From NCBI GenBank assembly GCA_900542195.1, contig UQNA01000001.1, forward strand, positions 49,640-113,639: a DNA stretch of 64,000 bases, in the 5' to 3' direction. Position numbers and translations under genes: made by a program. Positions within the stretch are counted from its first letter, which is position 1; each line of letters starts with the position of its first letter. The notes under the pieces were generated by a model. That model made no database searches and was not told where the DNA came from. It saw only the letters and a list, made by a program, of their open reading frames with translations. Of the stretch, positions 35,409-63,375 are shown piece after piece. This DNA comes from an uncultured Sutterella sp. Its GTDB lineage: Bacteria > Pseudomonadota > Gammaproteobacteria > Burkholderiales > Burkholderiaceae_F.

Positions 35409-38105
35409 TTAGAAGAAGATACTTGCACCGAAACGAACCTGAACGTCCGTCTTAATCCGATGACCGGATTCACGGTTCAACTGAGCGTACAGCTTCACTC
35501 GGTCTTTAGCTCGAACCTCAAATCCAACCCCGTAATATGCACGAGTACCTAAAGACTCATCTTCAAAATTAAACTCATTTAATTGAGTCTTCGTTTTGCC
35601 AAGGAACTCATGCAAAACGCCGCCGCGCAAATACACCTGAGCCGGTTTCTTATCACCGATCAAGAAATTCTTTCCGATATCGACACCAACTCTGCCGGTT
35701 AAACTTTTACCATCTTTCACGGAGACATCCATACCGTTGCTAAGAGAGAAACTCTTCCCTTTCAACCAGTAAGAAGACAGCTGTAATTGCGGCTGGATAA
35801 AGTAATGGTCGTATGGGCCCTTTTCTAAGAATTGGAACCTGTGCCCTACCTCAGCAGAAACACCTGCGCCGACATTGGAGTATCTTGCACTTGTGGAATC
35901 CTCGTCAAGCATCTTGGTAGACATACGATGACGGTAATGGTTGAAACTCATCACTAAATCTGCATAAGTACCTTCTTGATTAAACCAAGTCAAATATCCT
36001 CTGGCTCCCAGAGAATTTGTGTGGACTTTACCTTCTCCAAAGTCGTTAATTTTTAACTTAGCATAGCCGATATCAATATCTGCACCGACAATGAGATTTG
36101 GGGAAACTTTACGATTTACACCGACAGCCGTTCCATAGTTTCTTAGTTTGCCATTTACTCCCTGGAAGAAGCTCAGACGCGACTGGTCATACCGGAACAA
36201 CACATATGCGCCGTCAGTATCTTCGTCGAAATTATTTCTAATTTCCCCCAATCTCTCTCTTAATTCAGCCAAGGCACCCAGATATTGAGTTACTTGTGTT
36301 CCTTGTCCCACGGCTGCCAAGGCAAGTTTTGCACTTTCGGACAAACCATCCGGTTTCGGGATTAAATAATCCGGATAAGTGGAAGGATCCTCCACATCAA
36401 AGTTTGGGGGAGGAATAAAGGTTTCCGGTTGATCCGGCTCACTGGGCTGGTCCGGAGTTTCCGGCTCGGAAGGAGTATCCCCGGCTGGGGCAAGCTTGAT
36501 GTCTTTGGCCCCTACGAACCAATAGGTACGGGTGCCTTTATCAGCATTATAAAGTCCCAGCTTATATTGATAAGGACCGGCTTCGATAACGCCATTGTTT
36601 GCTAAGCTAAACACCGCTTGTCCATGCTTGTCTGTCAAACTCTCTATCACAAGCGGGCGCCATAGATAATCGGCAGAGCTGATATCTTTGCCGGTTGAGC
36701 CTAATAAAGCTTGGTGAGAACCTGCACTTTTAACAAGAATCTCTAATGTTCCTTTCGCACCCGGCCTATACCAGAGAAGACCTCCGTCGCCTCCTAATGT
36801 TTCAGTTCTTATTGTCAGGGCCGTATTAGGGTCACCCATGTCTACTACGCTGCCCTTAGACAAAGTTAAATTAGTAAGTCTTGAATCGCCAAGCGAGGCC
36901 CAGAAACTTTGAGGACCCATCGTCAAAGAGGCAGTACCAAGCTCTTTGACTACTTGAGTATGGTGAGTAACAATCTGGGCGCGCAGTGCACTTTTTTCTC
37001 CCAAATTAATATTCAGATGAGAGTTGTGGCCGACTTCTATCTTCTTATCGACATACATGACCCCATTATCTCTGACATTGAAATCTGCCTTTGCCCCAAG
37101 ATTTCCTAATGTAAGGCTCTGCAGACGGATCCCGGAGGCAGTCACCTCTGACTGGCCGTTAGAAAGCAGGCTCAAGCCTTCGTTGAAAACCACGTTCCCC
37201 GCAATATCTGCTTTCAAATCAGAGTCTTTTTCTACTAAAACCGGCTTATTAAAGTAAACGTTTTCAACTTTAATGTTTGCATCCGGATCGTCTTGGATAA
37301 TTAAAGAGCTGGGATGAGAAATATCGAGAAAGAGTACACCTACAGCTACCGGACGATTAAAAAGGATATTTTTTGCGCTCAGTTCCATGTCCGCAGTAAG
37401 TAAACGAAGCGGACTCTTTATCTCCACGTTTCCACCTGCGTCGGTCGGCTGCAGAAAATTAAGATTATTAGTAGCCTTGATATCAATTTTTGCGCCGTAT
37501 TGTGCGTCAACCGTTCCAAAAATATAGATATCTTCGGCTTTCATTTTCAGCTGACCATCATCGCCAACTGCGATAGCAAGCTCATCTTGATAACTTTTAT
37601 ATTGGTCGGAATACGGAGTCATTAAAACAATTTTCCCACCGGCCTGCAGCGTCGTGGTCGTGTCATACCCTACTGAAACAGCGTACCCGAACCCTTCCTG
37701 TTCTGTCGGACGAGGGCTGATGGTGATGTCTCCGCCGGTCACAATACTGACCCCTTGTTCATCTGCCTGCAGCCCTGGGAAAAGGAGTTTGGAAGGGTTG
37801 TCCGGATTCCGATAATTCATGAAAAAACCGGAATTGACTGAATTGATAACAACGCCGCCTGCTGCCGTCACATTCCACGCAACAGGGATTTGGTTCGAGT
37901 TAAAAATAAACTCTCCGTCTTTGCGAGCCTGTTCAAAAGCCTGTTCTATTTCTGCTTGCAAACCCGGGAAATAACGTTCCCAATTCAGTTCCAGCGGGTC
38001 TCTGGAGGTTGCGCTCCTCTTTCCCGCATAAACATGATCAAACTGCCCTGCAAAAACCGGCAGACTGAGGAAAGCCAAGCTTAGCAGCGTTAATTTTGTC
38101 TTCAT
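35409..38105 (-). CDS. Classical (type Va) autotransporter, paralog A: signal peptide, passenger, Pro-rich linker, C-terminal 12-strand beta-barrel
   Basis: Signal peptide MKTKLTLLSLAFLSLPVFA; linker PSEPETPDQPSEPDQPETFIPPP; barrel ending ...RFGASIFF (terminal aromatic). Confidence 0.85.
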   Translation of the reverse strand: MKTKLTLLSLAFLSLPVFAGQFDHVYAGKRSATSRDPLELNWERYFPGLQAEIEQAFEQARKDGEFIFNSNQIPVAWNVTAAGGVVINSVNSGFFMNYRNPDNPSKLLFPGLQADEQGVSIVTGGDITISPRPTEQEGFGYAVSVGYDTTTTLQAGGKIVLMTPYSDQYKSYQDELAIAVGDDGQLKMKAEDIYIFGTVDAQYGAKIDIKATNNLNFLQPTDAGGNVEIKSPLRLLTADMELSAKNILFNRPVAVGVLFLDISHPSSLIIQDDPDANIKVENVYFNKPVLVEKDSDLKADIAGNVVFNEGLSLLSNGQSEVTASGIRLQSLTLGNLGAKADFNVRDNGVMYVDKKIEVGHNSHLNINLGEKSALRAQIVTHHTQVVKELGTASLTMGPQSFWASLGDSRLTNLTLSKGSVVDMGDPNTALTIRTETLGGDGGLLWYRPGAKGTLEILVKSAGSHQALLGSTGKDISSADYLWRPLVIESLTDKHGQAVFSLANNGVIEAGPYQYKLGLYNADKGTRTYWFVGAKDIKLAPAGDTPSEPETPDQPSEPDQPETFIPPPNFDVEDPSTYPDYLIPKPDGLSESAKLALAAVGQGTQVTQYLGALAELRERLGEIRNNFDEDTDGAYVLFRYDQSRLSFFQGVNGKLRNYGTAVGVNRKVSPNLIVGADIDIGYAKLKINDFGEGKVHTNSLGARGYLTWFNQEGTYADLVMSFNHYRHRMSTKMLDEDSTSARYSNVGAGVSAEVGHRFQFLEKGPYDHYFIQPQLQLSSYWLKGKSFSLSNGMDVSVKDGKSLTGRVGVDIGKNFLIGDKKPAQVYLRGGVLHEFLGKTKTQLNEFNFEDESLGTRAYYGVGFEVRAKDRVKLYAQLNRESGHRIKTDVQVRFGASIFF

Positions 38106-39237: not shown

Positions 39238-41925
39238 TTAAAAGAGAATACTGGCGCCTACTCGAAATTGAAGATCACTTTTAATTCGATGCCCTGATTC
39301 TCGATTCACCTGAGCAAAAAATTTGACTCGGTCCTTTGCTTTAACTTCAAATCCAAGGCCATAATAAGCTCGAGTTCCCAAGGATTTATCTTCAAAACTG
39401 AACTCATTTAACCGTGCTTTGGTTTTGCCGAGAAATTCATGCATTACGCCCCCTTGCACATATACTTGAGCAGGCTTCTTATCTGCAATCAGAAAGTTTT
39501 TCCCTATATCAACACCAATACGCCCGGTAAGACTCTTTCCGTCTTTTACTGACACGTTCATACCGTTATCCAAAGAAAAATCTTTCCCTTTAAGCCAGTA
39601 AGAAGACAGTTGGATCTGAGGCTGAACGAAATAGTAGTCCTGCTCCCCACGGTTCAAGAACCGGAACTGGTGGCCTGCCTCCGCAGAAACGCCTGCCCCG
39701 AAATTAGAATATTTTGCACCGGTGGGAACTCCATCGATCATTTGAGTTGAAAGATGATGGCGATAGTGGTTAAAGGTAAGCACAATATCGGCATAACTGC
39801 CCTTTTGATTAAACCAAGTCAAATAACCTCTCGCTCCCACGGCATCGGTTTTGACCTTTCCTTTTTCATCGTCATTAACTTTCAGTTTGGCATGAGCAAA
39901 ATCTATATCGCCCCCGATAATAACTTCCGGAGAAATCTGGCGGTTGATGCCGATAGCTGTCCCGAAGTTTTTGAGTCGTCCACTTACTCCTTCATGGAAA
40001 GAGAGACGTGATTTGTCATAGCGAAATAAGACATAGGTGCTGTCATGTCCCTCATCGAAATGATTCCGAATTTCTCCCATTCTCTCCCGCAGCTCACTCA
40101 AAGCTCCAAGGTATTGGGTAACTTGCGTACCTTGTCCTATGGCAGCCAATGCCAGCTTGGCACTCCATGACAAGCCCTCCGGCTTCGGCATTAAATCGTC
40201 CGGATACGTCCCGGGATTATTCGGTTCCGAAGGCAAAGGAGGAATAGGGTCTTCCGGCTGCGAAGGAGTATCTTCCGGAGGCAGACCGTTCGAAGGAGGA
40301 GCAACCGGCTTTGGATTCTGAGCAGCAGTGACTAACCAAACCTTATCTGATCCGTCGGCATATTCTCCGAGCTGAAGCTTGTACTGATAAGGACCTGCTT
40401 CTACCACACCGCCATTAGCTAAATAAAATTCACCTTTGCTGTTTTCCGGGCCCGATGCATCAATTGCAACGGCCTGAAAAAGGTAGTGAGTGTCTTGGAT
40501 ACTTCTTCCCGTAGATCCTAAAAGAGCAAAATGAGTCCCTTCGCTCTTATTATTAATCTTCAGCGTACCTTGAGACCTTGGTTGGTACCATAAGAGACCG
40601 CCGTCTCCTTGCAAGGTATCGGTAGTAACCGTAATGGATTCACCGGGTGAGCCCATCTCCAAGACACTGGTCTTGGACATCGTCAGTGTATTGACTTTCG
40701 AATCTGAAATAGGGAACCAAAAACTGGCGTGTCCCATGGTCACGGAAGCTGAGCCGAGCGGATCTGACTCTATATACGCTCTGAGAGTACTGCCTTGCCC
40801 GAGAGTAATATCGACATGAGAGCGGTTCCCGACTTTGATAATCTCATCGACCTGCATGACCCCATTGTCTTTAACATTGAAGCTTGCCTTAGAGTCGGTG
40901 CCGTTAATCAAAATATTCTTGACTCGAATTCCGGCAGCAGAAATGTCGGAATTACTGTTGTTTGAAAGCGCCAGCTCTTCATTAAAAACAACGGACCCTG
41001 CAATATCGACCTCCAGGTTGGAGTAGTCAGCAACCATCACGGGGAAATAAAACCAGACATTTTCTACGGCGATGTTTTCATCGGGATTGTCTTTGATGGT
41101 CAATTGACTGGGATGAGGCGTATCAAGAAACGTCTTGCCAATATCTACCTGTCGGTTGAAAAAAATATTTGAGGCGCTAAGAGTCATTCCGGAGGCAATC
41201 AAGCTAATCGGCATTTCATTCACGTTTTTAGTGCCGATCACCGGATCCGTAGGTTTCAAGAAGTAGAGGCTGTTTGAAGCATTGATAGTAATGGAGGCAC
41301 CGTATTGCGCATCAACACCTCCGTAAACATACACATCTTCAGCCTTTAGATTTAGCTTTCCCTTTTCGGCTACCGCAATAGAGAGCCCGTCCTGATAGCT
41401 GGAATCGGATTTCTGATCCAGAGCTTTCAGTACAATCTTTTTTCCTGCCTCTAAAGTAGTTGATGTATCTGGGCTGACTGCCACCGCATATCCATATCCT
41501 GAGTGATCCGTTGATTTAGGAGAAACAATAATGTCTCCTTGAGTCTTGATAACCACATCATTATTGGCGTTTTCCAATTCCGGAAATACGGTTTCGAGTG
41601 TCTTAGGATCTTTGAACCAACGATAAAAACCGGAATTGACTGAGTTAATGATGACCCCTTTTTCCGCCGTGATATTCCAGTCTACGGGAGAAAGGTTAGT
41701 TTCCAGCTTGAAAATCCCGTTTTTTTTTGCTTCTTCGAAGGCTTTCTTTACTTCCTCTTCTAAGCCTGGAAAGTACTTTCTCCAGGTTTCCAGTGTTTTT
41801 GGCCAAGAGGGTAAGTTTTGCTCGGTATTTATCGTTTGAGAGCCGGAAGCAAAAGCCGGCAGAGCGCATAAAAATAAGCTCGAAAGTAATAATTCTTTTT
41901 TCATTTTCTGGTACTGGTATAGCAT
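39238..41925 (-). CDS. Classical autotransporter, paralog B (same architecture as paralog A; my by-eye estimate is about 50% identity)
   Basis: Signal peptide, Pro-rich linker PPEDTPSQPEDPIPPLPSEPNNP, and a conserved barrel ending ...RVGASILF. Contains an A9 tract on the coding strand (T9 at 41720-41728) encoding EAKKNG. Confidence 0.85.
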   Translation of the reverse strand: MLYQYQKMKKELLLSSLFLCALPAFASGSQTINTEQNLPSWPKTLETWRKYFPGLEEEVKKAFEEAKKNGIFKLETNLSPVDWNITAEKGVIINSVNSGFYRWFKDPKTLETVFPELENANNDVVIKTQGDIIVSPKSTDHSGYGYAVAVSPDTSTTLEAGKKIVLKALDQKSDSSYQDGLSIAVAEKGKLNLKAEDVYVYGGVDAQYGASITINASNSLYFLKPTDPVIGTKNVNEMPISLIASGMTLSASNIFFNRQVDIGKTFLDTPHPSQLTIKDNPDENIAVENVWFYFPVMVADYSNLEVDIAGSVVFNEELALSNNSNSDISAAGIRVKNILINGTDSKASFNVKDNGVMQVDEIIKVGNRSHVDITLGQGSTLRAYIESDPLGSASVTMGHASFWFPISDSKVNTLTMSKTSVLEMGSPGESITVTTDTLQGDGGLLWYQPRSQGTLKINNKSEGTHFALLGSTGRSIQDTHYLFQAVAIDASGPENSKGEFYLANGGVVEAGPYQYKLQLGEYADGSDKVWLVTAAQNPKPVAPPSNGLPPEDTPSQPEDPIPPLPSEPNNPGTYPDDLMPKPEGLSWSAKLALAAIGQGTQVTQYLGALSELRERMGEIRNHFDEGHDSTYVLFRYDKSRLSFHEGVSGRLKNFGTAIGINRQISPEVIIGGDIDFAHAKLKVNDDEKGKVKTDAVGARGYLTWFNQKGSYADIVLTFNHYRHHLSTQMIDGVPTGAKYSNFGAGVSAEAGHQFRFLNRGEQDYYFVQPQIQLSSYWLKGKDFSLDNGMNVSVKDGKSLTGRIGVDIGKNFLIADKKPAQVYVQGGVMHEFLGKTKARLNEFSFEDKSLGTRAYYGLGFEVKAKDRVKFFAQVNRESGHRIKSDLQFRVGASILF

Positions 41926-46167: not shown

Positions 46168-48261
46168 TTACTTGATGAGACCTTCTTTTTGAAGAGCCGG
46201 GATGACGAAGTCGAGTTGATATTCTTTCAACGTATCGACAGTCGGAACGCCTGTCTGCTTGTTAAATCCCATTTGTTCAAAGAAGATATCGAAGCTCTTC
46301 TGGATATCAGCCGGATCCATGCGGACAGTACCTTTAGTGAAAGGCTTTTTATCCTTCGGATCCCAGTAAATCCAACCCGGGACGGTGTCGTGATCCTGAC
46401 GCATATTAGAGCTGTCGAGCTGACGCATTGTGTAAACGCGCTGCAGGAGCCATGCGCGAGTTGCATCTTTATCCAAATCGTCGCCGGTCTTCTTAACGCC
46501 GGTTACAGCGGAGAACACCTTGGCTTCAATGTTCGGATCGCCTACATACTGGTTCTTTTCATCCGGGCAATATTCCCATGGGCCCATCCAAGAACACAGT
46601 CCCAACATGTTGTGAAGTTCCGTACGGGCGATAACCCATGCCAAACGCTTCATCTTGTATTCATTAACCGGCGTGTAATCGCCGATTTGGTCAACTGCGC
46701 TTTCGTCGCCCCATGTCACTTTAGCGATGTGCTTCATTTCCTTGATCGGAAGACCGCTGCGGGTGAAGTTAACGTGTGCGTGGGCCATCGGGTCACGGTT
46801 CCACATACAGTTCAAAACGCAGCCGAGCTGTGCATCATCTTCATTGGTATGATGTTTCGGGTGACCGTTGGACCAATACAGTGAACGATGGTCATCACTC
46901 CATGTCTTCAAAGGGATGCCGAAATGTTCGAGCATGACAGGAGTTGTTTCTCCCATCCACTTACCGAATTCACCTTGTCTGTAGGCAATCTTCGGAAGAA
47001 ATTCCTGCATAGCGGAAGCGTCAACGTCATCGATCTTCTTCCATGGCAAGGAGTCGTATTCTTCCTTAGAAAGAAGTTTCTTCCAATAACCGTCTGTATA
47101 CATCATGACCATATCTCGCTGGATCTGGCCGTAGTTGCACCACAAACCTAAATCATCCATTAACTGGCTGCCGACAATTGCGATCTCGATGTTTCTTTCC
47201 GGATGCAGCTTGAGATTCGGGTAGAAAAAGACCGGGAAGAGTAAGCCGCCGCAAGTTTGTTCAGTAATCGGGCTGACGTTGAATTTAGCCGCAGTCTTGA
47301 CATCTTTAATAACCGGATAGCAGCGAATCGGGCAAGCAAAGCAGCCGTTGTTGCGGACATGCAGACCCCATTCCTTATCGCCTAAGAAGAATTCTCCGGC
47401 ATTGGTGCGGAAGGCCATCTTAGAGAGGCGGCGCGTATCCAAAGGAACATTAATCGGAGGATTAGCAGCACCCCATTGTTTTCCGGGCATACCGGACCAG
47501 CGGGAGTTCAAAGAATGGTATTCAAAGAGCGGGTGCGGATAGCGGGAAACGACGGTCTGTGTCAGAGCGCCGAGCAATTCTTTGTGGCGGTTGACGAGTT
47601 TTTCCCAGTCTTCCTTATCAGCTGCGATATGGATGGCTTGGTCACCGTCAATCGCGATACCCTTCAAATTCTTGGAACCGAAGACGCCGCCGATACCGCC
47701 GCCTGTATGACTCTTGGCATTAATCACAATGGACATCGGAACAAGGTTTTCACCGGCCGGTCCAATAACGGTAACGGATGCGTTCGGAGAAGTTTCCTGG
47801 CTAATCAATTCATGGGAGCGGCGTGTCCCTTCGCCCCAGATGTGCCCTGCATTGCGGATTTGAACGTCATCGTTGTTGATGTAGATATAAACAGGTTCTT
47901 TGGCCTTACCTTCAATGATGATGAAATCGTAGCCGGCATATTTAATTTTTGCACCGATATCACCGCCCAAGTGAGCACTTCCGACCATGTGTCTCGGATA
48001 AGTAGTCGGGTACATTGTGGTGATAGATGTTCTGCCGGAGCAGACAGCGCCTGTACCTGTCAGAGGTCCGGGAGCGATAACGAGTTTGTTGGTTTCATCG
48101 AAAGCCTGAGTCTTAGGGGGGACTTCATCCCAAAAGATCTTATAACCGAGAGCAGTACCGCCAATCCATTGCTTATCTGTCGGAACTGTAGAGACTTCGC
48201 CTGTAGAAAGATTGATTCTGAGACCTTGACCGGTCCAACCGTATTTTTTTGTATCAGACAT
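46168..48261 (-). CDS. Aldehyde ferredoxin oxidoreductase (AOR)-family tungsto/molybdo-pterin enzyme, YdhV-like, 697 aa, no signal peptide of its own
   Basis: AOR N-terminal domain signature (KYGWTGQGLRINLSTGEV); [4Fe-4S] and pterin-binding regions (CFACPIRC...); length and operon context match E. coli ydhV as recalled. Confidence 0.85.
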   Translation of the reverse strand: MSDTKKYGWTGQGLRINLSTGEVSTVPTDKQWIGGTALGYKIFWDEVPPKTQAFDETNKLVIAPGPLTGTGAVCSGRTSITTMYPTTYPRHMVGSAHLGGDIGAKIKYAGYDFIIIEGKAKEPVYIYINNDDVQIRNAGHIWGEGTRRSHELISQETSPNASVTVIGPAGENLVPMSIVINAKSHTGGGIGGVFGSKNLKGIAIDGDQAIHIAADKEDWEKLVNRHKELLGALTQTVVSRYPHPLFEYHSLNSRWSGMPGKQWGAANPPINVPLDTRRLSKMAFRTNAGEFFLGDKEWGLHVRNNGCFACPIRCYPVIKDVKTAAKFNVSPITEQTCGGLLFPVFFYPNLKLHPERNIEIAIVGSQLMDDLGLWCNYGQIQRDMVMMYTDGYWKKLLSKEEYDSLPWKKIDDVDASAMQEFLPKIAYRQGEFGKWMGETTPVMLEHFGIPLKTWSDDHRSLYWSNGHPKHHTNEDDAQLGCVLNCMWNRDPMAHAHVNFTRSGLPIKEMKHIAKVTWGDESAVDQIGDYTPVNEYKMKRLAWVIARTELHNMLGLCSWMGPWEYCPDEKNQYVGDPNIEAKVFSAVTGVKKTGDDLDKDATRAWLLQRVYTMRQLDSSNMRQDHDTVPGWIYWDPKDKKPFTKGTVRMDPADIQKSFDIFFEQMGFNKQTGVPTVDTLKEYQLDFVIPALQKEGLIK

Positions 48262-49686: not shown

Positions 49687-51125
49687 TTCTTATGTTGTCG
49701 CTGATATTGATTGAAGAAGTACAAAGGTGTTGAAATAAAAATAACCAATCCGGCAATCAAGAAAAAGATATACCCAAGGCTCGCCCAAACTCCCTTCGAG
49801 AGAATTTGTTCCGGAGGAACAAATCCGCACAAGATAGAAATAAAACAAGTAACGAAAGCAACGCCTGACATCAGGCACAATCCAACTTTGCCGCCGGGCA
49901 CTTGATAAGAGCCTTTCTTATCGGGATACCGCAGCTTAAGTCGAATAGCAGCTGCAAACATTAGAAGGTACATCACCATATAGAGCTCTCCGCAAAGAGC
50001 TAAAAAGAGCCAAAAGGCGTCTGATACGGACGGCATTACCAAGACGCTCAAAGCCAAGAATGTGGCACATCCTGTTTGAAGAATCAGGATGCTGGTTTGC
50101 ATACCGAATGAATTCCGGGTCTGCCAGTACTTAGGCAGGTAACCTTCTTGGGCTACTTCCAGAAGGCCGCGGGAGGGTCCGTTCATCCACGTTACGATGG
50201 AAGCGAGAGCACCGTAGGCCAGAAAAGCAGCAAGGATAGGAGTGAACCATGAAAAACCAAGAGCTTTAAGCATGGTCTCAAAACTTTGACATACGCCCGC
50301 AGACATGGAAAGCTGAGCACCGGGGACCACTAAAGCAACGGATAACGCACCGAAGATAGAGAAGAAAAGAATAATAAGTGAGGCCAAGAAGATAGCTCTC
50401 GGGAAGGCCGATGTCGGATTCTTCATATTAGTCACGTGAACGGAACTCATTTCCATACCCGCTAATGACACCATCATCCCTGCCAGCAGCATCCACTGTT
50501 TTGGAGTGGACAAATCGGGAATAAGGGCTGCTCCTCCGTTAAAAGGGATCTGGATTGGTTTGTCGGTGAGAATATAGGCGGATGCAATCGCTATAAGAAA
50601 GAATCCCGGAATAATCGTGCCTACCAACACGCCGGACTTGGAGAGGAAAACCGAAAGCCTCATGCCTCGGAAATTCAGAACCGTTGCAATCCAAAGAATG
50701 GCGATAGTAGTGAAGAAGATGTACCAGCGATTGTGAGCGAGCTCAGGGCTAAAGGTGTATGCCAAGCAAGTGGCCACAAAAGTCGCTGCTGCCGGATACC
50801 AAGGCAAGTTCTGAACCCACTCCATAAAGATAGCAAGGAATCCATATTTAGGGCCGAATGCTTCACGCACCCAAACAAAAACACCGCCGCGTTCCGGATA
50901 GGTACTAGCTAACTCAGCCGAAACCAAAGCCGAAGGAACAAAGAAACAGACAGCAGAGGCAACGAGGAAAAAGATAATATTCCAACCGTACTCTGCCATG
51001 CTCGGCAAATTTCTCAAAGAGAAGACCGAACAAACTGTGAGCATAGCCATAGCGCCGATGCTCATCGTAAAACTTGTTTTATTTCTCTCGGTACCGCCCA
51101 CGGCCTTCCCTCCCACAACTTTCAA
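49656..51125 (-). CDS. APC-superfamily amino-acid permease (GadC/AdiC-like antiporter type)
   Basis: 12-TM APC profile; the start is probably an internal Met (MSIGAMAML...). Confidence 0.8.
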   Translation of the reverse strand: MKVVGGKAVGGTERNKTSFTMSIGAMAMLTVCSVFSLRNLPSMAEYGWNIIFFLVASAVCFFVPSALVSAELASTYPERGGVFVWVREAFGPKYGFLAIFMEWVQNLPWYPAAATFVATCLAYTFSPELAHNRWYIFFTTIAILWIATVLNFRGMRLSVFLSKSGVLVGTIIPGFFLIAIASAYILTDKPIQIPFNGGAALIPDLSTPKQWMLLAGMMVSLAGMEMSSVHVTNMKNPTSAFPRAIFLASLIILFFSIFGALSVALVVPGAQLSMSAGVCQSFETMLKALGFSWFTPILAAFLAYGALASIVTWMNGPSRGLLEVAQEGYLPKYWQTRNSFGMQTSILILQTGCATFLALSVLVMPSVSDAFWLFLALCGELYMVMYLLMFAAAIRLKLRYPDKKGSYQVPGGKVGLCLMSGVAFVTCFISILCGFVPPEQILSKGVWASLGYIFFLIAGLVIFISTPLYFFNQYQRQHKNSIETAAKPQ

Positions 51126-51860
51126 CTTCGGACTATAGCCCCATGATTCGAATGCAGATTTCTAAAGATCCCAAAACAGAACTATTCCGCTTTAACGTTA
51201 GTTATGTTTAATTCTTATGAGGAGGCAGAATCGTCCCATGCATGTCGAACATTCAGAATGAAGTCCTAAAAAATCGTGTTTTATATCAAAAAGTTGGAGT
51301 CCTTTTACAGAATTACACCCCAATTCGTTAAAGATGGTTGCGAAAAGCCAAACCTTGGCCCAATAGGTTACATCGGTTTACTTCTTACGAAAATTTGACG
51401 AACCGCAAAAGACCTATTGTTGAAATTGAGAGCCTCATACATTTTTGAGCTATTTGCATTCAAATTTTTTAGAACCGAACAAAAAGTACTTTCTTGAATA
51501 AATACATAAGAATTTTTTCAAAACTCTCGAGGGTGAATTGGACTCAACTAGACGGTTAATTCGATAGGTGTGTAATTTGCTTTTCTATGTGCGATACCAG
51601 GAAGATTTTTTCTTCGCACAACTCTGTCTTTAAAAGCAGGAATAAAAATCAATACTTGCGCCCAAGTTGAGCTCTTTTTTAATTTTTTCTTGGAAGTACT
51701 CACTTTGTACGTAATGATTGTCGTTCTCGATACATTCCCTAAAAAGTTTTAACAACCAGCCAACTCACTAACTTTCAATCCTATCTCGATTTGCCATTTT
51801 TGTCCCTCTTCGGGCTATGATTTGCCTCAAATTATATAAATAACCTTAAGCCTGAGATAA

Positions 51861-54800
51861 ATGTATATACATGCACGTTCCGTATGCCCGAAAAGCGGCA
51901 GAAATAAGCTCGTCGCTGCCATAGCCAGCGCGCTCGTCGCCCTCCCTCTTGGAATCCCATCTGATGGGTACTCCGCCGACTCAAACGCTGTCTTCCCAGC
52001 AGACGATGTCCTAGAAATTTCTGCCACGTCAAATAAAGGGGGGGAGTACGCCTTCGTCAATAGCTGACAAAATAAAAAAAGAGAAGTACAAAAGACTTCC
52101 GGATTTCTCCACTGAAAGATGGGCATTGTTTCTCACGGATCCGAAATGGAGCACTTTGAGCGATAATGCTGATTACCGCTCTTTGAGCGAACCCACGTAC
52201 AAGAATTCCCAACTCTTCATTACTGCCAAAGGAAGCAATATGGCAGGGGAAGATGAGTCAAAAAGATTCTCGATTTTCGGTGCTTACTATGACGGAGACA
52301 ATAAAAATGGAACAAACGATGGTACAGACGGCCTTAAGCGTCAAACTCCAACTGAAGACCAACGTAAGCTTTTAAGCCAATACTTTAGCCAAAGAACGCT
52401 TACTCTTACACTTGATAAATCATCGGACGAACAACCCTATACCTTGTTTGTTTCCGACGTTTTCGGGGCAAATAATGACTTTGCCGGAAGAGCCGTAAGT
52501 AACACGGCTATGCCTAAAGACAGCGATTTCGTAAAAGCCAATAATAATTCTGTTCTTATTAATCTAGAGAACAATACTTTGAACTTCAAGAGAATCAAAG
52601 GAGGCAAAGGAGTCAGCTGGAGAGAACTCACCGGCAAGAATAACGTCAAACCTATCACCCAGGCCTCGTATAACCTGGTTGTAATAGAGGGAGCAGAAAA
52701 GTCTCAAAATCAAATCAATCTTATCGGTGTTTATGACCAAGAAGACTCTAACTCAATCCAAACTGAAGACAAAGAGTTTTATCTGAATCCCTCTATTTTC
52801 GGAGGAGATGCCCTTCAGGCGGATCACAATATTGTCTTTTTAAAGAATGTTAATACAGACGGGATCGCCCGCAAATTCGGCATTGTGGGAGGTAGAGCTC
52901 AAGACGGCACTGCAGTAAATGGCTCGACATCCGTTGGGGCAGACAGCCGAAACAATTTAGTCTTGATTCAAAACTCTATTATTGGGGTTGATGGGGAAAA
53001 GAGCGAAGGTACCAATGTGTACGGGGGCCTGGGCTACGCTTCTGCACAAAATAATGCTGTAGTCATAGACAACACCAAGATCTTAGGCAATGTTTCGGGA
53101 GGCTTAAGCTTCTTAGATAATGTAATGTTCGACGGCTCTTACCATAAGTTTGTCTATGGTCCAAAGATTTCTAGTGACGGTTTCAATGCCGATCAAGTCC
53201 TAAGATCCTTTAACAAAGGTCTGACCGAAGACCATAACAGCGTCTACCTTAACCAGGCTGTGCTCGAGGGAACCTCCGCCGTCTACGCAAGCTCCGGTGG
53301 CCTTATCAAAACAACAGACGACAAACCCCAGGACTATATATATTTTGTTAATTCTAAACTTGTTAACCTGAGAAGAGGTACCGTTTACTTAAACGGTGCT
53401 AATCGTGCTTCTTCAATTTATGCCGATACGGTGTACTTTGGTAAGGTATTTGATTCTTCTGGGAAAAAGCTTTTAGCTGACACCTATACTGATGCTAAAC
53501 CTCTTACGGTCACCTTCGGTCACAGTCTCTCAGAGTCATACATCCGAACCTCCGCTGGTTTCCACTCAACGTTGACACGCTTGAACGAAGACCAAAGTGA
53601 TATCACACACGGAAAACACAATTACTGGACTAAGGTTGTAGTGAATTTAGGCGATGTCACTAAAATTAATGGTGACGGCAAGCATTTGAACACTACGGTT
53701 CCAGTATTTGAAAAAGAAGTGAGAGATGGAAATTCATATGCTGTCGCGAAGGACACGGTATTTTCCCTTCTCGCCCAAGACAATGTCGGAGGCTCAAGCA
53801 CCTTCTTGGCAATTTCTTCTGGTTACCACACGGATTCTGATGGAAAAATTCTTGACAGTACACCCGTCCGTGCTCTTAATTTGAATTGGTCTCGTATCCT
53901 TGAATACCGCCTCTCTTATGCATCCGGAGGAAGGTATTCAAAGGATCCTAATGAAAAACTAACCGTTGAAATCAACCAACCGGCTCCATCATACTCGAAT
54001 GCTGCCGTTCCTCTTCCGTTGCTTCAAGTCTTCCAAGGAGAGGCTGAGGTTCTTTCTCCTTCCGAAACTTATGTTTGGGTTGACGGAGACAGGAACTGGT
54101 ACAAGACTCAAGAAGACTATAACGCTAAGGAAAACCCAATCATAGACAAAATCGCTTTTCTTGAAGAGGTTCAGACTCAAACAGCAAAATCTCGCAAGTT
54201 AAAGGCAGACATTCAACAAAATGGGAAAGAGGTCGCAAGGGCTGAATACGCTCTGCTCCCGTACCTCAGTGTCGGAGAACTGTATGAAGTTAAAGATACA
54301 GACGGACGCGTAGAGAACTTTAAGGGCCATATCTTCTCTTTGACCCCATTGCTGAAGACCGACGCCGATCTATTTGTATCAAAAAATAATGTTGACGGCA
54401 CTACTAATATTTTTAAGGGAAATTTTGATGAAACCCAGCTGTACTATCGCGACGAAGACGGTAATTTCTACGAAGAAGTAGCTTCAGCCGGAGATATTGT
54501 AAGCGTCACCAATCTATCCGGAACCAGTGCTGAAGCCGGTGGTCTTGCCTTAGGTTCGCGTCTCATGAAACTCGAGCTCTTGGACCAAGTGGTTCTGAAT
54601 GGACTAACAGAGGATCAAACTGACATCTCTACTGATTCCTACACCGCAGAGATGGAACTAACGGGCATAGGAGGAATTTATATTCCTGCTTCAAATACTG
54701 TTTTCATCGGAGGAAAGGACAATCAAAATTCTTTCTCTGGTAAGACAGAAGTCGGAGCATCCGGAAAACTTTCCTTAGTCGCTACCGGAGCTCTCGGAAA

Positions 54801-57800
54801 TACCGAAAGTGTGGTACTTGGAAGTGCGGCTACTCTTACCGTTTCCAAACGCATTGATTCCAAAGAAGATAAACCGACTACTTCTCAGACGATAAAGAAT
54901 ATCAATGGGGCTGACGACAAAACCTCACTGGTTATAGAGAAAGATAATTCCCTAAAACTTACGGGATCTACTGATGCAGGCCAAATCGGAATTGTCAGTG
55001 GAGCAGGAAATCTAAGCATTGAAAATACTAAATTTAAAATCTTGTCTAGTGGCACCTTCTCCGGTCCTACCAATCTAACTGCATCAACCTTAACGCTTAA
55101 TAAAGCCGACGGTCTGGGAACAAGTGCCGTCACATTTGACAATAAGCCAACAGTTATTTTTGAGTCTCCGAATGGAACCTCGGACAATAACAATACTTTC
55201 CAAGGTGAGGGTTCCCTTCTGGTAAATGGCGGATCCCTGACTTTGGCCGGAAAGTACGCTGATCTAACCTCGACCTTTACTGGCGGCCTAACTCTCGAAA
55301 ATGCCACAGTCACAACTAAGAATGATAACGGTTACGGTTGGAAGAGAGTGGGTTCAGGCGATATTGCCTTAAACGGCACCTCTTCTCTCACGGTCTATTA
55401 TTCAAACGTTCAAGAGACAACCGGTGCGTCTTTTGAAAATAAGAAGCTCTCAGGCAGTGGAACTCTGAGCCTTGTTAACTCCGGGACAAATCAAGATAGT
55501 TTTAAATTCGGATCTCAGAACAATTCCGGTACTTTTACCGGCACTCTTGCTCTCAACAACGTCGGTATTTCACTTGACGGTCAAAATGCGACCGCAATGA
55601 AAAATGCTTCACTGAAGCTTGACAATAAATCCACAGCCATTATCACCAAAAAATTTGAAACTACGGGAAAAGTCACCTTTCTAGCCGGTGCCACACTGGA
55701 TTTTTCCTCTGTTGAAAATCACCTTGGGGCCAAAGAAATTTCCAACACCATTACCGCATCAAACGGATTTGACTTTTCGAATTCTCCTCAAGGAAAAATA
55801 AAAGTTAACCTCAGCGGTAAGGTAGGCACAGGCGATGCCTCTTTGGGTTTGCCTCTATTAGATCAAGACAATGGTCCTGTAAAACTTTACTTTGGATTCG
55901 GCAATGTCACTGGAAGTTTGGCCAATATCAAATTAGTCAATGCCGATGGAACAGACCTAGACTTAGGATCACAAAAATTTGACTATAAGGACGGGACTGC
56001 TGAACTGACCTACTCTTGGGGACTTACTGCCGATACTCCCAGCTCTCCTCTCTTCGGCACCTCTGAAGGTTTTGGATTAGGTTACAAACTCACAACAGTT
56101 AATGTCAATGATGGGGAGACCTTGGTTTTAGGACCTGTCGAAAATGGTCACGATTCCACTTTGTCGGCGAAGTTAACCAGCAACGAGGGAAGTGGCAGCG
56201 AAGTCGTAATTCACGGAGATCTCAACTTTGATAACCGTAATAATAACTTTGACAGTAAGCTGATCCTTACCGCAGGATCTTCTTTGACAGCCGTGGCCGG
56301 AGCACTTGGTCAGGAAGGTAGTCAGAAAGATGAATTGTTTGCATCCGAAGTCTCGCTTAAAGATTCTTCCAAACTGACTCTTAAGGAGGGTTCTCATACT
56401 ATCGGAAGTCTCAATACTGCTAGCTCTAGCAATGTTGTAATGGATGCAGCCACTAACCTGACCATTAGAGGAAACTCTACAGTTGAAGGGACCTTGGCTG
56501 GTGGCAAGAGCCTTAATTTTGAAGGAAAAGAGGGCTCGGTTCTAAATGTCAAAATCTCTTCTTCGAACGATCAATTCAAAGCCCTAGTTTCTTCTTTGGA
56601 ATACACTTCCTTAACGCTTGGAAAGGTGTCCTCGCTCGGAAGTTCTCTCATTAAGCTGGATCAGAACAGCACGGTTCAATACAGTGGCCCTAATTCCTGG
56701 AAGTCTTCTAACATCTTCGAGGGATTAGGCAGCATCGTTTATCAAGCACAAGACAGTGAAGCCAACACTTTTACTTTTAATGAAAAACAAGGAGAGTTTT
56801 CGGGAACCCTCGAGCTTCAGAAGGCACACATAGAACTTTCTGATGAGCAGTGACGGCATTACAAAACGCCACTTTAAAGCTGGGAAGCAACTCTTCCGCA
56901 CTGGTAGTAGGAGACAGAAAACTCTCCCAACTTGAAATGTCCTCCGGCTCAGTGTTGAATTTAGGGAAAGTTGACTTAGTCAATCAAAAAGCTACCGGCA
57001 GTCTGCAGGTTAATACATTAGGAACCATTAACGGCCAGATTACTTTCGGCGGATTTACTGCAGATATAAATGGAGAATGGGAAAAACTTCTTGATTTGGA
57101 TGAAACAGCGTATACCAAGCTAGTTAGTGGTCCTAAAGAAACCTCAACTCCCAATCCACAGTTCACTTATTACGAGGTTATTCAGGAAAAGAAACTTGAG
57201 CTGGTTAAAGGTGAAAAGAAACTTGAGTTGGCTAAAGGTGTTGAGGGAACCTTCGACATCGACTACACAAATACAAAAGATAACGAAATCGGTGCCTTCG
57301 TTACTTCAATCCTCAAATTATTGGATGTAGGGAAAGGAACGACTGTAACTTTTAAAAAAGGCAGCGGCTCCCAAGGCGATGATTTTTCGGCAGGTATCCT
57401 AGGTAAAGGCACAATTATTATTACGGATAATCTAATCTTTAATGCCAAAGAAGGAGACACTGAGTTTCAAGGAACATTAAAGGTTAATCCCGGCAGTTCT
57501 TTGACATTACAAAATGCCGAAGGCTTAGGAACTCAGGTTAGCCATGTCTCTGTCATTGAGAACTCCGGGACTATCAATATTGCCAGCCAGACATACGCCA
57601 ATAGGATTTCTGGAGCTGGAGACTGGAACCTTACAGGAGGTGCCAGCCCTAGCTTACATCTGGTTAATGCAGGTGGAAGCATCGGCAATTGGAGTGAAGG
57701 CACTTCTTCATGGATTCAAGGCAGCCTTGGAGGTGAGGGCAACATTCTTATTGACGAAGGCGCGCTCAAAATCGAAAGTTCTAATGAGAACCTACAAGGA

Positions 57801-60800
57801 AAATTAACCATTGGTTCCCAACGCACTAAGGCTGAAGTCATTTTGATGAAGACCGATTCTATCGGGTCAATGGAGGTTGAAATTGCGAAGGAATCTCTCC
57901 TGACCTTGGAAGGTTTAAATGGAAAGTTTGAGAATGTTTTGACTTCCAGCAATGGCAAGGTTTTAGTCACTTCGAGCTCTAACCTCGACATTACTAACAG
58001 CAATGGATTCCAAGGAAGTTATGAAATAAATGATGGGTCTACACTTTCTTTTGGCGAACTTTCCGGCTTTGCCAATGCAACCAACGTTAGTGCTGATGTT
58101 GAGAAAGAATCCTCCCTTCGCTTGGAGTATGGCCAAGCGTGGGAACTCCAAAGCGTCATTTCCGGAGGTGGAACGATTGTTATTGGAGCAGGAACTACTG
58201 CCCATCGAATAATGTTCACAACTGATGTCGCTCAGACGATGGGAGAACAATTCTACGGTGACATCCACGTTAAAAATGCCTACGTCGATCTCACGGCAAA
58301 TGCCCAAGCAGCCCTGACCCGAGGCTCACTTGTCTTAGATAAAAACGGAAAAGCCTCAATCCAAGAACCCCCAAGCGGCTCTTCTTACAAAATCGGAGGT
58401 CTGAGCTTTAACGGAGGAATATTGGATGCTTCGAAGGCTATCGTCACTCCGGGCAAAGCAGATGCTCAGACCTTATTGAATATCAGTGGCTATCACGAAT
58501 CCGGAGACAAAACAGGCACACATGTATTAAACCTCTCCGTCGAAGTTGAAAGTTATATCCAAATACGTCTATCCAATAGCGCCGTCAGCTCTCAAAACAT
58601 TTACTACGACCATATCAAAGACTTCTCTTTACTAGACCAAGACGAAGGTACGCTCAATGTCAGCAAAGATGATATTCTTCATGCAAAAATTGTCGGACTC
58701 TACAATGAAGATACTTGGGAGAACAAATCACGCGTTGAAGGCGACCTTGACAAAAACAAACTGGTCAGCGAATTCTTTGATGAAAAGGGAAATGAACGCC
58801 AAATCAAGGACAGCACACACAAGCTTTATTCTGGTGCTCAGGAAGATCAAAACCAAGTAGGGGTTGGACACTATAACTTCAGTCTCTCCGCTCTTACAAC
58901 TAACCAATCCTCAGAAAAGGCAGGTATTTACGTCGGTTACGGTCTTGTCGGCGTGGAAATTAAAGGAGGTAAGACTCTGACCTTAACACCGGGACGAGAA
59001 GCCGGTGGAGATACTTTCTCTGCGTGGGTCAAAGACGAAACCGGTTCAAGCGGCAACCTTGTCATTGCAAAAGGCCAACAAGAAGGAAATATTATTCGGC
59101 TGCAAAATAGTGCCAATGCTTACACAGGTACAACAACCGTTAATCAAGGCATGAAGCTTGTAGCTGCGACAGATAGCGCTCTTGGCAAGACAAGTGAACT
59201 CATCCTGGATGCCGGTTCTTCTTATGAACAAGCCGCCGGAACAACTCAAACTATTGGAAAACTCAACCAATCCGCCGGACAAAGCTCTGTATTTGTAGAT
59301 AAGAATGCTATTTTGGCTCTGGCTAAAGGTGGACTTTCCAACGGACATAATGCCCTGACAGGAGCCGGCACCCTTAAAGTCGAATCTGAGACTTTACAGG
59401 TCTCTCACTCTAATGCCGGACTCACAGGAAATGTGGAAATCGCCAACGATGCTTCCGTGCTCGCTTTATCCTCTCAATCTTTGGGTTCTTCGGACGTTAT
59501 TCTCGAAGGCCAGGGCAGCTTAACCTTCAAGGACATTGGTGGCGGCTCCTCCGTCTCCAACACTTTCCATGGAGCGGGCTCGATCAATCTGTCTAAGTCC
59601 GATATAAAGTTCTCCAAATCCTCCACTGGATTTACAGGAACAATCATTCTTGACTCTCCTTCCCATCTGGCTGTGGAAAAACTTGATGCTTTAGGAGCCT
59701 CCGAGATTAAGAATGAAGGTACTCTTCACTTAAATCTGGATGCAGACGAAGGATGGAATGAGGTCGCACTGGTGACTCGCTCAGCCGGAAGCAGAAAACT
59801 TACTGGATCCGGCAATGTCATTAAGACAGGAAAAGGTGTCCTCACGCTTCATTCGAATTACGCTTCTGAAGGCACAACCACTATCGAACAAGGCGGAGCA
59901 ATTTCCGGAACGGCAGAAGATCCTTTAAATCTTGCCGCTTCCTTTGATGTCCGAAAAGGTGCATATTTACAAGCTTTCGGTTCGATAAACAACCTGACAA
60001 ATGCCGGTACCGTTTACCTTAACGGCATTGATGCAAAGAAGACCTCGGAAAGTAAGCTGACCGTAAACGGAGATTTTGTCGGCAACGGCGGTACATTAGT
60101 CTTTGATGCCGATTTAGCAGCAGATACCAACTCGCATCAAAACACTCTCCTCGTCAAAGGAAACGCAACAGGAAACGGATTTATTCGAGTTAATAACTTG
60201 GATGGTAAAGGTGCTCAAACTCAAGAAGGCATAACCTTAGTCAGCATCGAAGGGAACTCTAATGTCAGCTTCCTGCTCGACGGAGCAGCCAAAGCCGGTG
60301 CCTATGATTATCTCTTGATGAATTCTGCCGACAATAAACGCTGGTACTTAAACTCTGTGAACCGACGCGTACGCTCTGAGGCAGGTACGTACATCGGCTT
60401 AGCACTAGCTGCCGAACAGATGAATATGCGCCTGCACGACAGAATGGGCCAGACCTACGTGGTCGATCCTCAATCAGGTGAACTCCGTCAGGCTGCAGGA
60501 TGGGTCCGTCAGCTTGCTTCTCACTCTCGCTTCAGTACCGAAGGAGAAAAGACTCGTCTTTCTACCTCCGTTACTCAGCTGGGTATGGACGCTCTGCGCT
60601 TCAAACCTTCTGCTGAAACCAATGCTGTCGCAGGTTTTTATGCCGGCGGTCTTTACGGAAAATCCAAGACAAGGGCCGCTTCCTTCTCCAAAGGAAAAAT
60701 CGATGGTTTCGCCCTTGGCGTTTACGGCACCTTCTATACCGGCGCTGATGCAGATGACGGCTTCTACACTGATACTTGGCTGCAGTACGGACGCTATGAC

Positions 60801-61298
60801 AACCGGATTACCGGAGAAGATCCAGAGCTCAAATTCCGCTCTCACGGATTCACTTTCTCCGTCGAAACAGGTTATAGCTTCAAACTTGCTAAGACAGGCA
60901 CTGAGAAAGAAACCGACTTCATTATTCAACCGCAAGCTCAGCTCATCGTCACAGATTTAAAGAACAACTCTGTCAGCGATACGCACGGATAGAAATTTAA
61001 ACAGCTTGGTAAGAATAATGCCACGGTGCGTCTTGGGGCCCGATTCATGGTTAAGCAGGACACAAAGCTAACGGCTTTTGTCGAAGGCAATTGGCTGCAT
61101 AACACGAAGAAGGCCGGTGTACAGATGGGAACCGAAGGTGTTTACATGAGCGGAGGCAAAAACACCGGGGAAATCAGAGTCGGTGCGGAAGGCACCCTCA
61201 GTCGCAACCTGAAAGGCTGGGTCAGCGGATCATTCCGAGCCGGGCAGTCCGGATATCACACCGAATCTGCACAGGTTGGCCTGAAGCTTCTCTTCTAA
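51861..61298 (+). pseudogene. Giant autotransporter adhesin gene (about 9.4 kb, about 3100 aa if intact) split into four ORF fragments. It is either phase-OFF or a decaying pseudogene.
   Basis: Fragments:
- signal peptide ORF, 51861-52067 (frame 0)
- 52126-56853 (frame +1)
- 56850-60992 (frame 0)
- 61026-61298 (in frame with the preceding fragment, after an amber codon)
The last fragment is the beta-barrel C-terminus ...SAQVGLKLLF. The passenger is Gly/Thr/Ser/Asn-rich with beta-helix-like repeats throughout. Confidence 0.7.
52038..52044 (+). repeat. Poly-G tract (G7) at the junction between signal peptide and passenger of the giant autotransporter
   Basis: Seen directly: aaataaaGGGGGGGagtacg. 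In the current frame it reads K-G-G-E...VNS*. Confidence 0.85.
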
Positions 61299-62034
61299 GT
61301 GCTTGCCTTATCACGGATCTAAATGACAGGATGGAGTCTCTGGTTAACGACCGGAGACTCCAGCACCGCCTCCCCCACAGACGTAATCTCATAATAAAAG
61401 GCCTCTGTCTAAAATCCGAGTTTGGAAGTTAAAGGTAAAAAAATTTCTTTGATGTCTTTATGCTCAAGACCTCGAAGGATTTTCTAATTTTTACGCTTGT
61501 ATTCCTATAAAAGCCTGTAGAAGCCAAGGACTCTCTTGACTATTTTGTAACTGCTCCTTTTTTACAGAATGGCTTGACCTGCCTGGAAAAGACAGAAAGC
61601 TCTTACAACAATTAGTACGAATCCAGACGCCAGATAGATAAATTTAAGAGAACGTCCGGAGTGATAAGTTCAAGAGGAAGACTGCCATCGGTAAGAACGG
61701 CAGTTTCTTGTTTAGATTAATAACCATCTGGTGTCGAACGGCAAGCCAATAAGGATGGTCGGGAGTCGATGAGAGATTTGGATGCTTCGGCTGCGTCACT
61801 AATCAACAGAAAAGAATAACAGTCCAATGGCTAAGAAAAGAAGTTCGAGAGCTTTAAGGTGGGCAAGAGAAGGAAATTTAAATAGGCCTTAATTATTGAA
61901 TTAGCGCAAGGTGTAGGTCAGCTCGAAAGCATTGCTACTCTTTGTATTTGAGAAAATAGGATCGCCCTCGGTTGAACCGGTAGAAATCCCAAACTAGCAT
62001 CAAACTTCTGCGGAAACTTTCTCCTTATCTCTCG

Positions 62035-62415
62035 TCACCGTTTCGTATAATTGCACTTTTGACATTGCGGCAGCGCATTTTTGTTATCTTCTTTATGGAA
62101 GGCTCCCGACCATTTACAAATGCTCTGCAGGATAGGAATTGCCGAAGAACCCTTGTCAGTTAAACAATACTGAACCCTGGGTGGAATTTCATCAAACTGT
62201 TGCCGCATTATCATGTTATCCGTTTGCAATTCTTTTAGGGTTGCAGCGAGCACGGCATCCGTGATATTTGACATTTCTTTTCTCAAAGAACTGTATCGCA
62301 AAGTACCTTTTTCTGCTAATACGCACAACACTCTGGACTTCCACTTTCCCCCAAAAACATCTAAACCATATTCCAATGGGCAGCGAATATCTTTTTCTAA
62401 CTTTGGTGTATACAC
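62035..62415 (-). CDS. HxlR-family winged-helix transcriptional regulator
   Basis: CPLEYGLDVFGGKWKSRVLCVLAEKGTLRYSSLRKEMSNITDAVLAATLKELQTDNMI matches the HxlR/DUF24 signature. Confidence 0.8.
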   Translation of the reverse strand: MYTPKLEKDIRCPLEYGLDVFGGKWKSRVLCVLAEKGTLRYSSLRKEMSNITDAVLAATLKELQTDNMIMRQQFDEIPPRVQYCLTDKGSSAIPILQSICKWSGAFHKEDNKNALPQCQKCNYTKR

Positions 62416-62552
62416 AGTCTTGCACTCCTTTCAAGTCAAAGTATAAAACATATTCCACAACTCTTAAGTTACTATCAAATTTGATAGTAACTAATAAATT
62501 TATTTATATATTTCATTTTTAGAGTTACGTTCGTATAATTTAGTCAAGTTCC

Positions 62553-62876
62553 ATGAGGAACGAACTCAAATTCGGAGTAATTCAAATGAAAGTAAATGCT
62601 TACTTAGAAATCACTATGCAAATCAATGAAGAAAACCGTCCGGCTGCCGCAAAGGTTTATAACGATTTCAGACAGCCCTTCCTTGACACGATTAAGGGTG
62701 CCTTAACAAAGGAACTGTTAATTCGTAAGGAAGATGTTCAGGTTCTCCATGGCTTTGACAACGTGGAAAACGCAAAAGCCTATCTTGACAGCGCCATGTT
62801 CAAAGAGGACGTTTTTGTAGGTCTGAAACCACTTTGGCACGCAACTCCGGAAGTAAAAATTTATGCTGTTGCTTAA
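62553..62876 (+). CDS. Small hypothetical protein, divergent from the HxlR regulator (likely HxlR target; fold not assignable)
   Basis: Divergent arrangement 138 bp from the regulator start. The probable start is the internal MKVNAYLEI; no motif recognised. Confidence 0.4.
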   Translation: MRNELKFGVIQMKVNAYLEITMQINEENRPAAAKVYNDFRQPFLDTIKGALTKELLIRKEDVQVLHGFDNVENAKAYLDSAMFKEDVFVGLKPLWHATPEVKIYAVA

Positions 62877-63375
62877 GTGTCACATACTGCGGTAGCGTGG
62901 CTGTAGAACAATTTCCTTGCTAAGTTTCCACCGGTCTTCAAAAGAAGTGACTCATTCCTAAACACGTTCTCGGAAAATGCTTCAGGAGAGTCACCTCCTA
63001 TAAAACTTTTTTGTCCAAAGTAAATGTCACTTGAGTAGAAGACAGTTGTATTTCATTTACGCCGTCTGCTTCCAAAGAGCATGCTCTATCCCCGACCTTA
63101 TCATCCTTTTTGAAGACTCTGTCTTGCTGACGCCAATACTTCTCTTCCTCCATCTTGTTGTTCAGGCCAGGTGTTATGACACGTTGCCAGTAACATTGGA
63201 GCGTTTGGTCAGAAAAGAGTTCTGCCAATCACTAGACGGACAAAGCGGCCGAATTGCAGCTACCTTTCAAAGTTAGGTTCCGCTGAAGAGCCCGGTTTTC
63301 TACTCTACTAAACATTCTGTGAGGCGCACTCCAAAACCTAATCAATTGCTAGGTTTTGGAAAGTGCTGTGTAGTC

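Follow-up and report, generated by a model that had tools for sequence, protein, structure and literature searches.

The 64-kb window analyzed here, a stretch of 64,000 nucleotides from an uncultured Sutterella sp. (contig UQNA01000001.1), carries a giant autotransporter gene in which a poly-G tract lies between the predicted signal peptide and the passenger; all coordinates refer to the window. The 5′ open reading frame (ORF) of this gene (51861–52067, +) encodes a 68-aa product that begins MYIHARSVCPKSGRNKLVAAIASALVALPLGIPSDGYSA...; its N-terminus resembles a signal peptide and is joined by a short linker to an out-of-frame tail, which stops at a TGA (52065–52067). The identical 68-aa product was found in two further assemblies. 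In the predicted signal peptide, the n-region is basic and the hydrophobic core spans 16 residues (LVAAIASALVALPLGI); the Kyte-Doolittle 11-residue mean reaches 2.6 at residues 17–28. The tract itself is a simple sequence repeat of seven Gs (G7; 52038–52044, +), located inside the coding region 178 nt past the ATG. It is followed by an ORF of 1575 aa (52126–56853) in the +1 frame relative to the 68-aa ORF; this passenger frame is open from 52015, with a TAG at 52012–52014 closing its upstream side. At the start of the 1575-aa ORF, no comparable hydrophobic segment was present (Kyte-Doolittle maximum, 0.66), in keeping with the proposal of an earlier, sequence-only reading of this DNA that the passenger ORF lacks a signal peptide of its own.

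At G7, the signal peptide and the passenger are out of frame. Removal of one G or addition of two (G6 or G9) generates a fusion reading ...SNKGG(G)STPSSIADKIKKEKYKRLPDFSTERWALFLTDPKW..., and the G6 translation, ...SNKGGSTPSSIADKIKKEKYKRLPDFSTERWALFLTDPKW..., joins the 68-aa ORF directly to the passenger ORF; G12 is likewise in frame. The G8 variant terminates at a TAG (52061–52063). A run of seven As (A7; 52074–52080) lies 3′ of the G tract. The coordinates and hand translations of the sequence-only reading, including the two ORFs, the TAG codons, the A7 run, and the G6 fusion, were all reproduced, and its proposal that the tract separates the signal peptide from the passenger of a giant autotransporter and that its current length is OFF was borne out.

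The G7 run is the sole G/C run of seven or more within the 64 kb. In dinucleotide-preserving shuffles of the window, a mean of 4.5 G7/C7 runs was obtained, and 96 of 100 shuffles had at least one; thus, such runs are, if anything, depleted (1 observed versus 4.5 expected). A single G7 does not by itself exceed chance expectation; its significance rests on comparative data, and not on the run itself. Promoter and terminator consensus scans, an Rfam search, and a repeat search of 51000–52300 returned nothing relevant. When the window was compared with the orthologous loci L001, L002, L091, L093, and L109, a segment made up of the ~85 nt leading up to the ATG and the initial ~50 nt of coding sequence (window ~51775–51915) was near-identical across all allele classes described below, and directly 3′ of this segment the DNA identity fell to 78–85%. 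One possibility is a conserved leader or promoter; another is that recombination between allele cassettes has its boundary here.

Downstream of the tract, the gene is broken twice more. The first passenger fragment (52015–56853, +) ends at a TGA created by a 10-bp deletion, in which AAAGCAAAAT is missing at the junction 56849/56850 (+) relative to the orthologous loci L006, L007, L008, and L009, resulting in an irreversible frameshift. The gene then continues in a 1380-aa fragment (56850–60992, +) that contains the second part of the passenger, the autochaperone, and the first part of the β-barrel. This fragment ends at an in-frame nonsense TAG (60990–60992, +), where L008 and L009 have TAT (Tyr). 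The last 101 codons of the β-barrel (60993–61298, +) are stranded behind it in the same frame and end with ...VGLKLLF and a stop codon. The 1380-aa fragment matched Pfam AC_1 (PF18883) at residues 1046–1156, Pertactin, and Autotransporter (PF03797) at profile positions 2–155 of 255, and the 101-codon tail matched PF03797 at positions 168–254 of 255. Since the PF03797 match is divided in this way, the TAG falls inside the β-barrel translocator domain. In comparison with L008, dN/dS was 0.25 for the first passenger fragment (88.8% nucleotide identity), 0.28 for the 1380-aa fragment, and 0.04 for the tail.

The C-terminal autochaperone followed by a β-barrel translocator, which is uninterrupted in L008, supports assigning the encoded protein to the type Va (classical) autotransporters. 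The sequence-only reading had called it an adhesin, a designation that found no support. The passenger, including its first fragment, had no Pfam match and no known protease or other domain, and no whole-protein match to the AIDA-I, MisL, or ShdA families was obtained. The NF033176 (AIDA-I) model scored 167 bits against a cut-off of 1200 and covered only the autochaperone and barrel; the MisL and ShdA models, NF011841 (198 against 1297) and NF011847 (77 against 2249), covered the barrel only, all far below curated cut-offs.

We examined whether the two downstream lesions recur in assemblies of the same lineage. The deletion junction was present in all nine same-lineage loci covering the site (L097–L105), and the TAG in all five covering it (L097–L101), indicating that both lesions are real and present in every sampled member. 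In addition, the exact 1,537-aa truncated product (window 52240–56850) was found on 18 contigs from many sequencing runs. Neither lesion is located at a repeat able to revert. Judged by these frame-disrupting and nonsense changes outside any reversible repeat, the window locus is a fixed pseudogene. Even with G6 or G9, the product of the window copy still ends at 56853 and reaches at most 1,663–1,664 aa, a fragment that carries the signal peptide and lacks both autochaperone and translocator. As no tract length gives a longer product, the switch is a relic in the window lineage. The sequence-only reading had proposed that tract length toggles expression of a roughly 3100-aa product; this part failed for the window copy, which is not one ORF after the tract because of the deletion at 56849/56850 and the TAG at 60990–60992. 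A change of tract length alone does not switch an otherwise intact ORF in the window, and does so in the diverged orthologue L008.

The sequence-only reading had suggested comparing tract length in related isolates or metagenome-assembled genomes, and this comparison came out in its favour. We compared the window with 14 other assemblies of the same lineage (99.79–100% identity; 183,941 aligned bases in total). Across these, 26 single-nucleotide polymorphism (SNP) instances and no insertions or deletions (indels) outside the tract were observed. By contrast, the tract differed in length from that of the window in 10 of the 14: G8 once (L098), G9 once (L107), G10 seven times (L097, L100, L101, L102, L103, L105, and L108), and A4G9 once (L010), the last being equivalent to G10 with a G-to-A change at the first position. 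G7 was shared by the window, L095/L106 (from the same run), L096, L099, and L104. Elsewhere in the covered region, the homopolymers A7 (52074–52080), G6 (48116–48121), and T9 (41720–41728) were invariant. Differences at the tract therefore exceed those at an average nucleotide in frequency by some three to four orders of magnitude.

Tract length was not tied to the surrounding SNPs. Both G7 and G10 occurred on each of three SNP backgrounds defined by positions 52023 (G/A) and 57045 (T/C), indicating either repeated changes in length or a reshuffling of lengths by recombination. The G-to-A SNP at 52023, situated 15 nt upstream of the tract and changing Ala to Thr in the linker, was found in L010, L098, L099, and L100; since these assemblies have A4G9, G8, G7, and G10, respectively, tract length is uncoupled from its nearest marker. 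On the strength of these comparisons, the tract is a genuine hypermutable simple sequence repeat. Thirteen of the 15 assemblies, the window included, were in a single OFF frame (G7, G10, or A4G9), and the lengths were bimodal (G7 in five, G10 in seven).

The only same-lineage assembly with an ON-frame tract, L107 (SRR29934079_2710; gene at locus positions 1–3433, − strand), yields a called product of 1,607 aa where 1,664 aa would be expected from the stop at the 10-bp deletion, a shortfall of 57 aa. It appears to carry a further premature stop near the Tyr codon at window positions 56680–56682 (TAC), beyond the end of the fetched locus. In L106 (ERZ920306, run ERR1190873), a segment of 21,080 bp was 100% identical to window positions 34214–55293. 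The record is labelled human gut metagenome; Turicimonas, the genus that the source of the window resembles, is known from mice.

Syntenic orthologues recovered from metagenome assemblies showed that the tract is not confined to the window lineage. All of them share the upstream genes for an amino-acid permease, a 4Fe-4S protein, an aldehyde ferredoxin oxidoreductase (AFOR), and YdhW. Three N-terminal allele classes were distinguished among the syntenic copies: the tract-bearing window type (...SNKGG-STPSS...), a second tract-bearing type (...SYTE(E)GGG(A/T)ALTPIPKQ...), and a tract-less type (...DSNEQVLDSL...), whose signal peptide and passenger are directly in frame. The predicted signal-peptide N-terminus was conserved across all of these classes, and in P0001/L001, P0002/L002, and L091, the N-terminus seen in the 68-aa ORF continues in frame into the passenger. 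In L001, L006, L007, L008, and L092, a tract was present at the homologous site despite differing flanks, and in each of these loci, as in the window, only G6, G9, or G12 opens the ORF. L001 has G9 and is in frame over 1,204 aa up to the contig end; L006 and L092 (both G8) and L007 and L008 (both G7) are out of frame.

The frame behind these out-of-frame tracts was open for 9.3 kb in L008 and 8.5 kb in L006. When the tract of L008 (contig OGKG01000010.1) was set to G9, the gene gave 3,150 aa without a stop, including AC_1 and a complete TIGR01414 barrel (profile positions 6–432 of 432). In the L008 sequence as assembled, the tract is therefore the only defect of an otherwise intact autotransporter ORF of ~3,150 codons. 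Between lineages, dN/dS was 0.18–0.31, indicating that the gene has been under purifying selection for most of its divergence.

Outside these syntenic loci, a scan of 185,579 species-representative genomes with six peptide patterns from the passenger detected no relative, Turicimonas muris YL45 included; every recovered allele class contains at least one of the six patterns. It seems that the gene either occurs only in uncultured relatives or is absent from representative assemblies. For a passenger this repetitive, word-indexed protein searches had very incomplete recall, giving 2, 4, and 1 relevant matches and missing proteins that were found by exact look-up.

Irreversible lesions were also widespread among the orthologues. 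All four tract-less lineages were damaged, three of them by irreversible lesions: W593 is replaced by a stop in L002–L005 and W2105 by a stop in L091, and L093 has a 7-bp duplication and a 1-nt insertion. In the fourth, represented by L109 and L110, the gene is cut short at codon 96, at the end of both contigs. Irreversible lesions were also present in two or three tract-bearing lineages; in addition to the window, L092 carries a 19-bp deletion. Among loci whose 5′ end was not covered, L094, from the same sample as L002, has Y1146 replaced by a stop, and L009 has a 1-nt deletion. Three tract-bearing lineages were without any other defect over the length covered. In L109 (10286–10340) and L110 (4412–4441), unrelated AT-rich sequence takes the place of the gene beyond codon 95, and the contigs end within ~50 nt; a repeated or mobile element that inserted here could account for this arrangement.

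Taken together, these observations lead us to propose, with a probability of about 85%, that the poly-G tract is a hypermutable switch on a type Va autotransporter gene of ~3,150 codons, which in the window lineage now persists as a relic on a pseudogene. In this model, slipped-strand mispairing during replication would alter the length of the tract, which sits ~20 codons after the predicted signal-peptide cleavage region, and the length would decide whether signal peptide and passenger share a frame, with G6, G9, and G12 being ON in the window allele. Owing to its position right after the signal peptide, a frameshift would abort the protein early. Where a lineage has kept the remainder of the gene intact, the tract would act as a reversible ON/OFF contingency-locus switch that presumably controls expression and surface display. 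A switch working there, now or formerly, is supported by retention of the tract in two diverged allele classes, by the long open frames behind the out-of-frame tracts of L006 and L008, and by the ON state of L001 together with the low dN/dS. In the window lineage, the 10-bp deletion and the TAT-to-TAG change have been added to this system, leaving the tract as a still-mutating relic; its return to G6 or G9 would yield only the translocator-less fragment, for which display on the cell surface would not be possible.

Several points weigh against this proposal. The ON frame was found in only 1 of the 15 window-lineage assemblies and in one of five diverged tract-bearing lineages, and no copy that is both full length and ON was present among the recovered loci. 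The bimodality of G7 and G10, with few G8 or G9, is unlike simple one-step neutral slippage, and the excess of one OFF frame may come from clonal sampling, from recombination, or from selection against exporting a truncated protein in the ON frame. All sequences compared are assembly consensuses, many of them from low-coverage metagenomes, and the signal peptide was called from composition and hydrophobicity alone, with an uncertain cleavage site. Finally, at least eight independent irreversible lesions have accumulated across lineages, including the tract-bearing window and L092, so that the tract could be a mere mutational hot spot in a gene being lost, and not a maintained switch. This last point, along with the predominance of OFF tract states and the missing full-length ON copy, would be explained by plain gene decay, in which the autotransporter is being lost, the poly-G is only its most mutable place, and switching is maintained in no lineage; the early truncation of L109 and L110 fits such a course, and the same conclusion was reached for Campylobacter capC/capD (PMC7168839). 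We nevertheless regard decay alone as a doubtful account of the locus. It does not readily explain why two allele classes with differing flanks both retain a G run of 7–10 at one homologous position when G/C runs of this length are depleted in the window, nor why 9.3 kb and 8.5 kb of frame have stayed open behind the out-of-frame tracts of L008 and L006, why dN/dS is low, or why L001 is ON. Moreover, damage affects four of four tract-less lineages, whereas three tract-bearing lineages are free of other defects over the covered length.

We consider two further explanations highly improbable. If the true tract were G6 or G9, the frameshift would be a homopolymer miscall arising from sequencing or assembly; several platforms are prone to errors in homopolymers, and no indel other than the tract separates assemblies that are at least 99.94% identical to the window. 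However, other samples gave four independent assemblies with G7 and identical flanks (L095/L106, L096, L099, and L104), other homopolymers were invariant in 184 kb, and the 10-bp deletion and TAG substitution, which are not homopolymer errors, recur in nine and five assemblies. Alternatively, a fused protein could be produced from a fixed out-of-frame tract by programmed recoding, that is, by ribosomal +1 frameshifting or RNA polymerase slippage on the G run. Long homopolymers permit some slippage and the two ORFs overlap as at recoding sites, but the frame relation is not conserved: G7, G8, G9, and G10 place the passenger in all three frames, and one allele class is tract-less and simply in frame. 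Neither a stimulatory structure nor an Rfam frameshift element was found in 51000–52300, and the recoded product in the window genome would still end at 56853.

We also considered whether selection acts on the locus beyond the proposed switch. It is conceivable, if rather unlikely, that the relic tract in the dead-gene lineage is still under selection and that the wider inactivations reflect host-imposed selection against displaying the giant protein. The single OFF frame shared by 13 of 15 assemblies on at least three SNP backgrounds, with the one G9 assembly apparently carrying an additional stop, would fit selection against the ON frame, as export of the translocator-less 1,664-aa fragment could be harmful; it would fit equally with selection for the 68–69-aa signal-peptide-bearing product. 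If this were true, host pressure, for example by antibody, would act on the gene, with the poly-G as a reversible route to loss of expression and the point lesions as an irreversible one.

The window derives from a Turicimonas-like Sutterellaceae bacterium: its GatB protein is 99% identical to that of T. muris YL45, a species that forms part of a widely used defined mouse microbiota, and the DNA of that 5.4-kb region is only 90.4% identical, indicating a bacterium distinct from YL45. The remainder of the window is densely coding, with a YdhV-type AFOR cluster directly upstream of the giant gene. On its 3′ side, ~1.57 kb (61362–62936) follows the autotransporter in the window, compared with ~0.3 kb in L008 (19247–19546) and L009; the extra segment contains an HxlR-family regulator gene (62035–62415, −) and a small ORF. 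Two paralogous autotransporter genes of ~895 aa (35409–38105, −, and 39238–41925, −) are also encoded in the window. Their barrels match TIGR01414, a weak C-terminal match to the BafA family is far below cut-off, and the barrel regions are ~71% identical to each other in nucleotide sequence. The gene at 39238–41925 contains an A9 run (41720–41728; T9 on the + strand) ~200 nt past its start codon, a position that resembles that of the G tract in the giant gene; the A9 is in frame here. Both this run and the A7 at 52074–52080 were considered as further switches and rejected, as they were invariant in the same-lineage assemblies covering them (L106–L108 for A9). Elsewhere in the window, three paralogous aspartate ammonia-lyase/class II fumarase-like genes lie within 16 kb (3270–4766, 9957–11396, and 17321–18754).

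Phase variation via intragenic G/C homopolymers is textbook knowledge for Neisseria, Haemophilus, Helicobacter, Campylobacter, and Bordetella. The meningococcal autotransporters NalP and MspA carry an intragenic poly-C tract that is ON at 7, 10, and 13 C in nalP and at 6, 9, and 12 C in mspA (PMC3723659). Like the gene described here, they are classical autotransporters with an intragenic G/C homopolymer whose length varies between strains; their expression depends on this length, and the window allele follows the same 6/9/12 rule. They differ in their host, Neisseria as opposed to a Sutterellaceae gut bacterium, and in the passenger, which here is far larger (~3,150 aa) and without a known domain; moreover, the window copy is irreversibly broken downstream, and switching is inferred here from sequences alone. 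In Campylobacter jejuni and C. coli, capD (with an intragenic homopolymeric tract) and capC have G tracts of ~4 to 10 or more, and the genes are either intact or inactivated by premature stops or frameshifts in a lineage-associated manner, so that decayed lineages cannot revert via the tract (PMC7168839). A variable tract is thus mixed with irreversible lesions, as at the present locus. Campylobacter belongs to another phylum and its passenger is a different one; in addition, some decayed Campylobacter lineages have a uniform short tract, whereas the tract here is polymorphic in a decayed lineage. The Lav autotransporter of non-typeable Haemophilus influenzae, which is controlled by a GCAA(n) repeat, was predominantly OFF in the collections of carriage and invasive isolates that were examined (PMC9022572). 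It resembles the present gene as an autotransporter with ON/OFF control by a simple sequence repeat, and differs in that the repeat is tetranucleotide and not a mononucleotide run, and in its unrelated protein family and host.

A literature search yielded no report of intragenic homopolymer phase variation in Turicimonas or of a phase-variable autotransporter in Sutterella, and no paper linking Turicimonas to autotransporters; two papers mention both Turicimonas and phase variation, each only in passing to judge from their titles and the number of occurrences. Although the mechanism itself is well known, the lineage and the unusually large gene are new.

For the window itself the outcome is deflationary, as its switch controls nothing functional. 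At this locus, annotation pipelines will predict several separate fragments, and strain-resolved metagenomics will encounter a 'variable' site at the tract that is not an error. More broadly, a gut bacterium of the Turicimonas group carries a hypermutable tract on its largest surface-protein gene, and in natural populations this gene is kept OFF or repeatedly destroyed, a hint that display of the giant protein may be costly in the gut.

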